Source of the DNA: a virus
Virus genome (UHGV): UHGV-0038964
Length of the DNA stretch: 13,966 bases
Strand: one strand, 5' to 3'
Part shown: positions 427-10,533 of the stretch, piece after piece
Layout of the letters: the number at the start of each line of letters is the position of its first letter
Position numbering within the stretch: the first letter of the stretch is position 1
The notes under the pieces: model-generated
What the model saw: the letters and a program-made list of their open reading frames with translations, nothing else
What the model was told of the DNA's origin: nothing
Databases searched by the model: none
Made by a program: the position numbers and the translations under genes

Positions 427-469
427 TGGCCAACAACTCCCAGTGTAATTCGCTGTGAGTTGTTGGCCA
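427..469. repeat. Perfect 13-bp inverted repeat (TGGCCAACAACTC / GAGTTGTTGGCCA) with a 17-nt spacer, just upstream of the c1 ribosome-binding site
   Basis: Read directly: arms at 427-439 and 457-469 are exact reverse complements; the GGAGGAGG Shine-Dalgarno of c1 follows at about 479-486. Confidence 0.5.
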
Positions 470-1346: not shown

Positions 1347-1376
1347 ATGCCCGGCATCAACCGGGCATTCTTCCAT
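1347..1376. terminator. Bidirectional intrinsic terminator between convergent c1 and the HNH-motif gene
   Basis: Stem ATGCCCGG (1347-1354), loop CATCAA, stem CCGGGCAT (1361-1368); T-rich sequence follows on the + strand (TCTTCCATTATT) and on the - strand (AATTTATTG). Confidence 0.6.
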
Positions 1377-2598: not shown

Positions 2599-2979
2599 CT
2601 ACTCCGCAGAACCATACAATCTACGTAACGTGGCGGCGACAGAAGATACAGATATCTCGCCAGTCGCAGCGCCTACAGTAAGGTCTGCCAGTTCAGGTGA
2701 ATCAAATACCTGCACCCCGTTACGGCGTAGAAATAGCAGCGCACTGTTTAGCGCGGTACGCTTATTGGCATCATTGAATATATGCCCTCTCGCTGTAGCC
2801 ACCAGGTAGGTGGCGGAGACTTCGAAAAGGTCGGTGATCTCTTCGTAGGCAACTCTGGCCTGAACTCTCCCGATAATGGCCTCTGCCCTACCCGGATCTG
2901 ACATTCCCGGCAGGCCGCCGTAGCGGCTTATATTCGCATCATGAAGCGCAATAAGTTCTTCCGGTGATATATGCCTCAT
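2599..2979 (-). CDS. doc: Doc toxin (Fic-fold kinase, death-on-curing), 126 aa
   Basis: Protein [22 protein letters not shown]... with the Fic/Doc motif [11 protein letters not shown]; matches P1 Doc as I recall it. Its ATG overlaps the phd stop (TAATG). Confidence 0.9.
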
Positions 2980-3200
2980 TATCGGTTAACCAGTTCCTTG
3001 TTGGTGGAGTCCAGGGTGTCAAACAGGGATGCAAATTCAGCATCCAGCGCCGCTTTTTTGTAGGCTTCGAAAGTAGCCTTGCTGACAATTACTGCTGGCT
3101 CACGGCCTCTGCGGGTGATTTCAACCTCTTCCCCGGCTTCAACATTGTTGAGCACTTCAGAAAGGTTGCCGCGCGCGGTACGGAAGTTAATGGATTGCAT
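2979..3200 (-). CDS. phd: Phd antitoxin (Phd/YefM family), 73 aa
   Basis: [41 protein letters not shown]... matches P1 Phd as I recall it; true ATG at 3198-3200 with GAGGTG upstream. The track start at 3206 is a GTG two codons earlier. Confidence 0.9.
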
Positions 3201-3206
3201 AAACAC

Positions 3207-3233
3207 CTCGTGTACTCGTTATGTGTACACAAT
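3207..3233. promoter_or_regulatory. Putative Phd/Doc autoregulatory operator (GTGTAC core at 3210-3215 and palindrome TGTGTACACA at 3222-3231)
   Basis: Two GTGTAC-containing sites immediately upstream of the phd start, one a perfect 10-bp palindrome. Phd is known to autoregulate at palindromic sites in its promoter; the exact site sequence is not recalled. Confidence 0.35.
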
Positions 3234-3272
3234 TATAAACTTCACAGGCATAAAGCACCAGCACTTTGCAGC

Positions 3273-3662
3273 TTAAATCACCGGACAGTCATCAAATTCC
3301 CCACTTCGGGCATCATTGATGACATGAGTGATCACACCAAAAACAGCATTACTACCCGTGTAACCATCGTCATCTACTGGTAACGCCTCTTTCTTCCCGG
3401 TGCTTAAATCCTCCAGGTGCTGGCGCGGATACTTTCGGTATCTCTTTATGCGATATTCACCCTCCATAGCGCAGACAAGCAGCGAACCATCAACCGGAGT
3501 AAGCGAGGAATCAACCACCAGCAAAGCACCCTGCAATATTCCCTCACGGTGATGGCTGTCTGCCGCCCGCATGAAGTATGTCGCTGATGGATGCCTGATT
3601 AGTTGCTGATCAAGAGAAATTCTGCTTTCAACATAATCCGCCGCAGGAGAAGGGAAGCCCAT
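3273..3662 (-). CDS. humD: HumD, UmuD'-like polymerase V accessory subunit homologue (LexA/S24 peptidase fold), 129 aa
   Basis: ATG at 3660-3662 with GAGGTGA upstream; UmuD'-like sequence; gene order humD-phd-doc as in P1; LexA box immediately upstream. Confidence 0.8.
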   Translation of the reverse strand: MGFPSPAADYVESRISLDQQLIRHPSATYFMRAADSHHREGILQGALLVVDSSLTPVDGSLLVCAMEGEYRIKRYRKYPRQHLEDLSTGKKEALPVDDDGYTGSNAVFGVITHVINDARSGEFDDCPVI

Positions 3663-3681
3663 AGCGTTTTCACCTCAACAA

Positions 3682-3701
3682 TACTGTTTATTTATACAGT
3701 A
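3682..3701. promoter_or_regulatory. LexA (SOS) box TACTGTTTATTTATACAGTA
   Basis: CTGT at 3684-3687 and ACAG at 3696-3699 with an 8-nt AT-rich spacer; a perfect CTGT-N8-ACAG palindrome about 20 nt upstream of the humD ATG, in the divergent region shared with the + strand gene at 3837. Confidence 0.75.
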
Positions 3702-3836
3702 TACATTAAAGAGACACCTTTGGTGCAAACGCGTTATGTACATCAACCACCGCAGATGATTTTGTGCGCTTTGCTACTATTCATCACCAACGGATCAGCG
3801 TAACCTCGTTGCCAATCAGTTAATAAGGAATTAGCT

Positions 3837-4412
3837 ATGCCTAATCGCATTCCTCTCGATCCTGTATTGCCCAAAAATTTTGACTGCACTCCTAACGAGA
3901 AACGCTCTAAAGCTCAGCTGGACGCCTGGTGGGATCATCCGTATGGAGTTACACAATCTGACGGGAAAATTGTTGTTTTTTGTCTAAACGGTGGCGCGTG
4001 GGACCGTCCATCCATGCTTTGTTTGGCAGATAACTATGATGACGCCTGTGAACTTGCAGAAAGAAAGCAGGCAAGCTGGGTAAAAACACGGTCTAAACCG
4101 TCATTCATGTTTTCAATAGAACCGCCATTTATCCTAGCAAGGATGCCGCAGCGACCAGACCAGGAACAGCAAGAGATTGTTGCCGAATTTGATTCAAGGG
4201 AAGAAATGAACCTCTTCACGATGAAACAGGAACAAGAAGAGAATCTTGGAGTTTCACCATTTTTGGATCACAAGAGTATGAACCTCGACCTGCTTATCTG
4301 GTACAGCAATGAGCTTGAGTTATCGCTGTCCCGGCTTGAAAAAGAAAAAGCAGCTATCCAGGCACAACGTGAAGCTGTGTTGGCGCGGATTAAAGAAGTA
4401 CAGAACGGATGA
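3837..4412 (+). CDS. Hypothetical protein (191 aa) with a coiled-coil C-terminus; divergent from humD
   Basis: ATG at 3837 with AAGGAA 7 nt upstream; no overlapping competitor ORF; the C-terminal 60 aa are heptad-like (LELSLSRLEKEKAAIQAQREAVLARIKE). Function unknown. Confidence 0.55.
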   Translation: MPNRIPLDPVLPKNFDCTPNEKRSKAQLDAWWDHPYGVTQSDGKIVVFCLNGGAWDRPSMLCLADNYDDACELAERKQASWVKTRSKPSFMFSIEPPFILARMPQRPDQEQQEIVAEFDSREEMNLFTMKQEQEENLGVSPFLDHKSMNLDLLIWYSNELELSLSRLEKEKAAIQAQREAVLARIKEVQNG

Positions 4413-4418
4413 TTGCTG

Positions 4419-4682
4419 TTATTTTTTGATGGTATCGTCTTTTTGGTATACCGGATCGCTTCCCTTTGGCAACTGGAGGCTTAACTGCCGGTAGTGCCGT
4501 AGACGTTCCATGAAATAGGTGCGCAGGTTCTCTGGTTGCTCGCGGGCTACCTGTTCAGCTATGACAGGTATGTTCAATCGCTCTTTGTAGGCAACCCCCC
4601 TAGCAGCCAGGTCAACGTTAACTTTATTCCTTTCTTCCTGGCTTTTAGCTGCTATGTTCCATTCGTTCATATTAAATCCCAT
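4419..4682 (-). CDS. hot: Hot, homologue of DNA polymerase III theta subunit (HolE-like)
   Basis: The stretch [42 protein letters not shown] resembles E. coli theta ([42 protein letters not shown], recalled). Start is either the ATG at 4682 or the ATG at 4670. Confidence 0.7.
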
Positions 4683-5138
4683 CCAGAATAATTGAATAAC
4701 GGCTATTATTTAGTCGCCGCAATATCTTCAAAGTTTTTTTCTCACCCCATTGCTTTTTGCGCACAGCTTATCTGGCTTGCGGTGCGCCGAAATGTAAATT
4801 CGCCTTCAGAGTTATCCACAAAGTTATGCACTTGCAACGAGGCCATTTTCCTCATACTGTGTTTGCACACACAGGAAATGGATATTTTATTAATTGAATT
4901 TTATTAAATAATAATGATAAGGAGAAAATTTGAGATGTAATCATGACATTAATAGATAGGGCCTGCATTACAGGCCCCAACTACATCAAGGAATTCACAG
5001 TTCCCTGATTTTTATACCGAAAACATGTGCCGTAAGTTCACGTTAACGACTTTCTTTCACCGAATCCAACTATATAGAGGTTGGGTTTCTACGTCAACGT
5101 GAGAGCACACAGCTTTACATTTGACGAGGATTACCCTG

Positions 5139-5731: not shown

Positions 5732-5761
5732 AAAATCCCCTCTGTGAATTGAGGGGATTTT
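5732..5761 (-). terminator. Intrinsic terminator ending the upstream minus-strand operon
   Basis: Stem 5732-5742 pairs with 5751-5761 (AAAATCCCCTC / GAGGGGATTTT); on the - strand the stem runs into TTTTTGTAT. The same stem supplies the GAGGGG Shine-Dalgarno of the lipoprotein gene. Confidence 0.6.
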
Positions 5762-8624: not shown

Positions 8625-8652
8625 ATTTTCAGCTCCTGTGATTGATTGGATA

Positions 8653-8683
8653 CATGCCGCGCCTTGCGGCATGTTTTTATTTT
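8653..8683 (+). terminator. GC-rich palindromic hairpin (CATGCCGC-gcctt-GCGGCATG) followed by TTTTTATTTT on the + strand
   Basis: Read directly. On the + strand it has the form of an intrinsic terminator, although no convincing + strand gene precedes it; on the - strand it sits in the 5' leader of the operon, between the predicted promoter and the 28-aa ORF. Confidence 0.45.
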
Positions 8684-10480: not shown

Positions 10481-10513
10481 AAAAAAATGCTGGTGGGCGC
10501 ACTCCACCAGCAT
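10481..10513 (-). terminator. Intrinsic terminator downstream of the 420-aa gene
   Basis: Stem ATGCTGGTGG (10487-10496), 7-nt loop, stem CCACCAGCAT (10504-10513); on the - strand the stem is followed by a run of seven T. Confidence 0.6.
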
Positions 10514-10533
10514 TAAAAGTGACACTGTAACTG

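Follow-up and report, generated by a model that had tools for sequence, protein, structure and literature searches.

The leader of the repressor gene c1 contains a hairpin that is very probably a selected RNA element, kept in position and shape among P1-type elements while its sequence is not kept. Folding and sequence comparison lead us to propose a promoter-dependent masking of c1 translation, in which the hairpin would act both as a clamp and as the paired 5' end of the Pc1 mRNA; we regard the chances of this model being right as about evenly balanced. The 13,966 nucleotides analysed, in the following called the window, come from a P1-like plasmid prophage and represent its immC region. Coordinates of the P1 record AF234172 were moved by a fixed offset (window position equals position in locus L001 minus 227), and in an alignment with this record the stretch 370-500 is 100% identical to P1 except at base 450. 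The features of the region are as follows.

1-37: end of an IS1 element; P1 homology begins at base 37, which is position 264 of the P1 locus L001
172-381, + strand: coi, C1 inactivator (69 aa), P1 annotation
209-225: operator Oc1c, inside coi, ATTGCTCTAACGCTTTA, P1 annotation; its first 10 bases fit the operator consensus
381-408: Oc1ab, bivalent C1 operator, P1 GenBank annotation transferred at 100% identity
381-397, + strand: Oc1a, P1 annotation
392-408, - strand: Oc1b, P1 annotation
395-424, + strand: promoter Pc1 (former P99a), with -35 TCTATT at 395-400 and -10 TATAAT at 419-424, P1 annotation
405-419, + strand: 5' strand of the basal helix in the predicted fold, TCGTTGGATCCTTCT, anti-Shine-Dalgarno/anti-AUG, within the Pc1 spacer
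426-445, + strand: 5' arm of the leader hairpin, containing 427-439, from repeat search and RNA folding
446-450, + strand: loop of the leader hairpin; base 450 is T in the window and in P7, and C in P1
451-470, + strand: 3' arm of the leader hairpin, containing 457-469, from repeat search and RNA folding
480-487, + strand: c1 Shine-Dalgarno sequence, GGAGGAGG, starting 11 nt past the repeat
482-495, + strand: 3' strand of the basal helix in the predicted fold, AGGAGGATCAATGA, spanning the c1 Shine-Dalgarno (480-487) and AUG (492-494)
492-1343, + strand: c1, repressor gene (283 aa, Pfam PF27008), with its ATG at 492

The operator that a preliminary description of this DNA had placed at 381-397 is the annotated P1 operator Oc1a. 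The repeat, on the other hand, is covered by none of the 535 features in the P1 record AF234172, and neither the P1 GenBank annotation nor the literature open to full-text search yielded a description of the hairpin; the classical P1 papers may contain one.

The same description had reported a perfect 13-bp inverted repeat with a 17-nt spacer, and the arms TGGCCAACAACTC (427-439) and GAGTTGTTGGCCA (457-469) are indeed fully complementary, the first of them starting 2 nt past the Pc1 -10 hexamer. The repeat lengthens to 17-nt arms (427-443 and 453-469) with one C/T mismatch and 9 nt between them, and in RNA folding it gives a stem of 20 pairs (426-445/451-470) with a 5-nt loop and a ΔG of about -32 kcal/mol. 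The view that the arms lie too far apart for a typical terminator had to be given up, since the stem runs inward to this small loop. For the segment 420-510 (91 nt) the predicted energy is -35.9 kcal/mol, with z = -5.4 against dinucleotide shuffles. No perfect inverted repeat other than 427-439/457-469 has arms of 13 bp or more separated by 3-25 nt anywhere in the 13,966 bases of the window, and the mean number of such repeats over 300 dinucleotide shuffles of the window was 0.003. The repeat is not a chance product, chance being excluded by these shuffle statistics. A search of the window against Rfam gave no family at the gathering threshold, the best sub-threshold match scoring 19 bits against a threshold of 60.

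In P1 and P7, the comparison proposed in the preliminary description, the repeat is present and identical apart from the loop base 450. This identity is uninformative on selection, because the flanks are equally identical. More diverged relatives were therefore of interest, and a protein search yielded C1 homologues of 53-79% identity, whose loci were retrieved. The 130 nt 5' of c1 were taken from 194 loci and gave 30 distinct sequences. Leaders with the operator, an invariant TATAAT and a GGAG-type Shine-Dalgarno sequence were classed as P1-type (C1 71-100% identical). They form nine lineages, every one of which has a hairpin that starts 0-4 nt past the -10 hexamer, and the TATAAT -10 itself is invariant across the nine. 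The stems have no common sequence:

Allele A: TGGCCAACAACTCCCAG
Allele B: AGGTCAGTAATGACCGG
JK004/Klebsiella: ACATTCCCCG
Salmonella Newport and arizonae: (G/A)CACCCCC
P0005: ACACCCTCC
P0008: ATGGCAGTAACCC
P0009: GCGCACATCC
P0010: ACGCACACCC

The arms vary from about 8 to 20 bp and the loops from 5 to 16 nt, with hairpin ΔG between -19 and -36 kcal/mol over the nine lineages. Ranked by stability against every 50-nt window on either strand of its own locus, the 50-nt window past the -10 comes within the top 0-0.8% in each case. The idea that the repeat has no function, being a quasi-palindrome kept by template-switch repair or by chance inheritance, finds some comfort in natural variants with single stem-breaking changes (L179, L145, L107 and L193). 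It is highly improbable in our view, as it leaves aside that independent hairpins occur at the same place in nine lineages, that each ranks with the most stable structures in its locus, and that the wobble pairs are strand-specific.

The hairpin is absent in all four distant Pantoea-type leaders (C1 53-59% identical), which have another promoter and a leader of 22-26 nt. These four loci (L010, L094, L096 and L097) have a -10 TACTAT and start codons GTG or TTG, and about 40-90 nt 5' of c1 they carry a palindromic operator-like CTCTAAAAAA-N-TTTTTTAGAG. L094, L096 and L097 have a divergent HTH_3 gene upstream, and a 99-aa ORF is found at the place of coi in L094 and L096. As to the reach of the searches, the genome_contigs scan gave P1-identical loci plus one Pantoea locus only, and the sole addition from protein searches of the plasmid collection with divergent C1 was the Salmonella Newport and arizonae lineage. 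In metagenome contigs the exact operator motif TCTAATAWATCTATTWTTTT gave 120 AT-rich chance matches, none of them encoding a C1 homologue. Two contigs labelled ‘MAG: Bacillota bacterium’ (L006 and L009) carry a c1 99% identical to that of P1, and the label is most likely due to binning contamination by an enterobacterial P1-like plasmid.

The preliminary description had suggested that the symmetry marks a binding site for a dimeric regulator. A perfect dyad at about +1 does occupy a classical operator position, and symmetric changes in the two half-sites of such an operator over the Pc1 start would also appear compensatory. The features to be expected of a palindromic operator, namely a conserved half-site and spacing and symmetry on both strands, were not found in the nine lineages, where arms and spacers vary and no half-site is shared, and a half-site search revealed no copy in the window beyond the two arms. 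Alleles A and B of the hairpin occur with C1 and Coi proteins that are 99-100% identical. The repeat is also unlike the 17-bp asymmetric C1 site ATTGCTCTAATAAATTT, whose true copies lie at 381-408 and 209-225. The positions that depart from Watson-Crick pairing are mostly G-T on the c1 sense strand, and the natural single changes C430T and A466G both give U-G pairs. Consistent with this strand bias, the + strand folds more stably than the - strand in seven of eight hairpins; for 400-500 the values are -47.0 (+) and -33.4 (-) kcal/mol, a difference of 13.6 kcal/mol in favour of the + strand. From the G-T asymmetry, the strand stability and the variable geometry we conclude that the element would act as RNA of the c1 sense strand, and we give very little credence to a DNA operator.

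The hairpin could also act as an intrinsic terminator or attenuator and so restrict transcription from coi into c1, and its stem is indeed stable and contains GC. Moreover, the hairpin of the Salmonella lineage P0010 (L092:1438-1490), ACGCACACCC...GGGTGTGCGT, is followed by TTAGTTTTTT and looks terminator- or attenuator-like, while P0009 (L100), the nearest relative of P0010, is without a T-run. In the window no T-run follows the repeat (after 469), as the preliminary description had correctly observed, and none is present in seven other lineages. The terminator scan has no entry for the repeat, and it does list true terminator-like hairpins elsewhere in the window (1347-1368, 5732-5761, 8652-8674 and 10486-10514). 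C1 is, in addition, reported to be expressed from P1coi too (PMC8546580). The probability of termination as the function of the hairpin therefore appears to us almost negligible.

The two alleles offer a closer view of how the stem changes. C1 is 99-100% identical between allele A and allele B loci, and the leaders align without gaps between identical flanks. In an alignment of 11 distinct A and B sequences 91% of the cells are paired, compared with 27-51% when the partner is slid. Six pairs are changed on both sides between A and B, and the slid controls have none in five of six cases and one at +3. The changes are C-G to U-A twice, U-A to G-C, A-U to G-C and G-C to U-A, and one repair of the internal mismatch. 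Two more compensated pairs are seen between P0009 and P0010, and one G-U becomes A-U from Newport to arizonae. Covariation alone is indecisive between RNA and DNA, because a palindromic protein site would also change symmetrically.

With a covariance model trained on alleles A and B, every one of the nine P1-type lineages gives a + strand match in the leader, and no Pantoea-type leader gives one. After alignment to this model, and with + strand rows only, 85% of the cells pair, compared with 42-51% when slid, and double changes occur at 17 of 34 pairs compared with 3-8 when slid, in an alignment that is biased towards the model and whose basal pairs are unconvincing in some lineages, e.g. Newport. 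RNAalifold on a MAFFT alignment of the nine lineages gives only a weak consensus of -2.5 kcal/mol, since the sequences of the hairpins do not allow an alignment.

Although the elements that carry them are about 99% identical elsewhere, the two structure-preserving alleles have different bases at about 20 of 42 positions. Of the differences between the window and an allele-B element (L146:515-575), 23 fall in the 61 nt of 406-466, and 13 are spread over the ~1,240 nt that make up the rest of coi-c1. Leader identity to the window has a bimodal distribution in 702 PLSDB plasmids, with 359 at 95% or more, 339 at 80-90% and only 4 at 90-95%, so that the two alleles are about equally frequent. The C1 protein of the window is 100% identical to that of allele-B loci, which implies that the hairpin alleles have recombined relative to c1. 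The hot spot of divergence may be due to patch recombination or to selection on the hairpin sequence itself, at which the two alleles hint.

The position of the hairpin relative to the promoter is of particular importance for its possible function. From the annotated -10, the Pc1 start would lie at about 431, 7 nt past the hexamer and inside the 5' arm, and a start predicted in the same way falls inside or at the base of the stem in nine of nine lineages. In all nine, three to six stem pairs are located 5' of this expected start. They come from the hairpin proper in A, B, P0008, P0009 and P0010, and from a short outer stem in Newport, P0005 and JK004. One of these pairs, 430/466, covaries between alleles A and B. 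The complete fold would accordingly be possible only in RNA that enters from upstream.

An RNA structure that masks the c1 Shine-Dalgarno in transcripts reading through from coi had been the other suggestion of the preliminary description. The repeat itself has no contact with the Shine-Dalgarno; folding and sequence comparison support the suggestion in a modified form, with a larger predicted fold in which the repeat is the apical hairpin. In the partition function of the read-through RNA 172-620 the hairpin stands on a 14-bp helix, 405-419/482-495, whose upstream strand has as its last base the first T of the Pc1 -10 and whose downstream strand contains the c1 Shine-Dalgarno and AUG. The pair probabilities of this basal helix are 0.83-0.97, with the exception of G410-C490 (0.54), which lies beside the bulged G411. 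The compound fold of 101 nt has an energy of -47 kcal/mol and z = -7.8. Since 405-419 ends at the first base of the annotated -10, any sigma-70 start lies downstream of it, and the strand is thus expected only in transcripts of the coi promoter, being upstream of the predicted Pc1 start. In RNA that begins at 431 no basal helix is possible, and folding leaves a hairpin flush with the 5' end.

How widely the basal helix is shared was judged from the duplex energy of the initiation region with the 16 nt that precede the -10, ranked among all 16-nt windows of each locus. The rank is 0.0008 in A, 0.004 in P0010, 0.03 in B and 0.03 in JK004. It is not significant in Newport, P0008 and P0009, where 5-7 bp of anti-Shine-Dalgarno pairing are left (UCCUYU with GGAGGA), and the value for P0005 was computed on a wrong segment, a second TATAAT having been picked. 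On these predictions the long basal helix may be considered convincing only in alleles A and B, P0010 and JK004. An ATCC core just 5' of the -10 is invariant in the nine lineages despite its position in the promoter spacer. The 3' strand of the basal helix does not vary within the A/B clade, and we see no compensatory change in this helix there, only C-to-U changes that preserve wobble pairing.

Two Dam sites (GATC), at 411-414 and 485-488, face each other across the predicted strands of the basal helix, and a GATC at the upstream place is present in five of eight distinct leader sequences. We did not retain a role for Dam methylation through the site at 411-414, because three lineages have no GATC there, whereas all have the ATCC. 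Coupling of c1 translation to that of coi is likewise unlikely, the coi stop codon (379-381) being 24 nt upstream of the masking strand.

The predicted accessibility of the Shine-Dalgarno differs between the two kinds of RNA. With the 3' end at +21, its unpaired probability is lower in the read-through form than in the Pc1-start form in 13 of 13 lineages (0.35 vs 0.94 in A and 0.11 vs 0.91 in B), a thermodynamic contrast that rests on a co-transcriptional assumption, since with a longer 3' end the Shine-Dalgarno of the Pc1 RNA is predicted to pair with the coding sequence. The Shine-Dalgarno is predicted to pair with the 20-nt segment directly before the -10 in eight of the nine P1-type lineages. 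When the hairpin is shuffled, pairing with this 20-nt segment falls from 0.96 to 0.03 in JK004 and from 0.89 to 0.36 in B, and when the anti-Shine-Dalgarno segment is shuffled the Shine-Dalgarno pairs elsewhere.

Taken as a working model, promoter-dependent masking would operate in the following way. Transcripts from P1coi (imcA-imcB-coi-c1) would form the full hairpin, which would bring 405-419 next to the c1 Shine-Dalgarno and AUG (482-495). The resulting 14-bp helix would block ribosome binding, and RNA from the coi promoter would yield Coi and little C1. Transcripts from Pc1, without the 5' strand of the helix, would have a free ribosome-binding site. They would also keep a shortened hairpin of about 12-13 bp with the first nucleotide paired, which may shield them from 5'-end-dependent decay.

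The last of these steps could be all that the hairpin does, and this is the main rival to masking, with which it is also compatible. A 5'-terminal protective stem-loop would slow decay by RppH and RNase E and provide a long-lived repressor mRNA from the weak, autorepressed Pc1, and the complementarity of 405-419 and 482-495 would be functionless. The location of the position 7 nt past the -10 inside or at the base of the stem in all nine lineages and the flush 5' hairpin of RNA from 431 are in line with such a role, 5' stem-loops are established stabilisers of mRNA (PMC3997798), and the basal helix is weak in several lineages. However, stabilisation alone gives no reason for the three to six pairs 5' of the expected start, of which 430/466 covaries, nor does it account for the invariant ATCC in the promoter spacer or for the 14-bp complementarity with its rank of 0.0008. 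We think it unlikely that the function of the hairpin is limited to protection of the mRNA.

The duplex may also be an element of processing or a barrier to decay, cut by RNase III or stopping exonucleases, and would then part the fates of the coi and c1 mRNAs, for example by freeing c1 from the masking strand. RNase III acts comparably in the lambda N leader. The 20-pair stem of allele A (one mismatch), placed on the 14-bp helix, is in the size range of RNase III substrates; continuous stems elsewhere are only about 8-13 bp, which is short for a typical RNase III site. We regard this explanation as improbable.

Masking of this kind is well known, and the P1 c1 leader would be an added case. 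In the T4 genes e (lysozyme), soc, 49 and I-TevI the ribosome-binding site is sequestered in long early transcripts, and a proximal promoter within the region encoding the 5' strand produces translatable RNA (PMC3014915). The c1 leader would be of the T4 gene e type, its Shine-Dalgarno and AUG being predicted to pair with an upstream segment and the proximal Pc1 RNA to lack that strand. It differs from T4, where the switch is temporal (early versus late sigma factor), in that the two P1 promoters are both of the sigma-70 type and repressed by C1. The gene concerned is moreover the master repressor, and a hairpin of its own, which evolves fast, spans the roughly 62 nt between the two predicted pairing strands.

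Stem-loops at the very 5' end that stabilise mRNA are found in the ompA and papA leaders (PMC3997798). The P1 hairpin would resemble these by standing right at the predicted 5' terminus of the mRNA, with few or no unpaired nucleotides before it, and unlike these its repeat reaches 5' of the expected start. In the fold-back inhibition of IS10/Tn10, RNA that enters from outside pairs with the transposase ribosome-binding site, and the native start lies inside the structure. Similarly, the ribosome-binding site in P1 read-through RNA is predicted to pair with sequence encoded 5' of the native start. However, the IS10/Tn10 arrangement provides insulation from external promoters, whereas the upstream promoter in P1 is the phage's own and drives the antagonist coi. 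A further parallel is lambda cI, whose PRE and PRM transcripts differ in translational efficiency by their 5' ends, the maintenance transcript being leaderless and poorly translated. The P1 repressor may likewise be made from two promoters whose RNAs differ in translational efficiency by their 5' ends, but in this case it is the maintenance RNA, from Pc1, that would be open to translation.

C1 has been stated to come from P1coi as well as from Pc1, and Coi from P1coi only, and recent quantitative work on P1 takes the c1 mRNA of both promoters as equivalent (both in PMC8546580). It is tempting to speculate that the c1 leader is a promoter-discriminating translational switch, such that lytic RNA from the coi promoter gives Coi and almost no C1, repressor is made only from Pc1 RNA, and the Coi:C1 ratio, on which the decision of P1 for lysis or lysogeny depends, is partly set at the RNA level; we put this forward tentatively, and with somewhat more doubt than belief. 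If c1 were silent on coi-promoter RNA, such models and the meaning of ‘free c1 mRNA’ would change, and bistability of the lysis/lysogeny switch would have a simple additional source. How P1, a classical model phage, makes this choice is still not well understood, and resistance genes are widely carried by P1-like phage-plasmids. The two-allele polymorphism provides natural variants on which masking can be tested.

The element in the window departs from P1 in one respect that bears on the proposed masking. The P1coi promoter, Oc1d and the 5' part of imcA are missing, and IS1 is in their place; with IS1 (1-37) replacing P1coi, the upstream promoter that reads into c1 in P1 itself is absent here. 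The IS1 transposase gene next to immC is on the strand opposite to coi, and the lone promoter-like match in the IS1 end is directed away from coi, which is probably without its natural promoter in this element. As IS1 has removed P1coi, only the Pc1 form of the c1 leader is expected.

The surroundings of the region 3' of c1 also differ from P1. In 1344-2400 a 299-aa ORF on the - strand (1488-2387) is found where P1 has pacB, an arrangement as in the phages RCS47, JL22 and phi456, in which the region is annotated ant/roi. Between the convergent c1 and this ORF lies the hairpin 1347-1368, which the scan calls terminator-like on the - strand only. Further downstream, 2599-4700 contains a doc/phd toxin-antitoxin pair and genes for an S24 peptidase (humD-like) and a DNA polymerase III theta subunit (hot-like), with gene names taken from the annotation of the 100% identical plasmid pLR-27_1.
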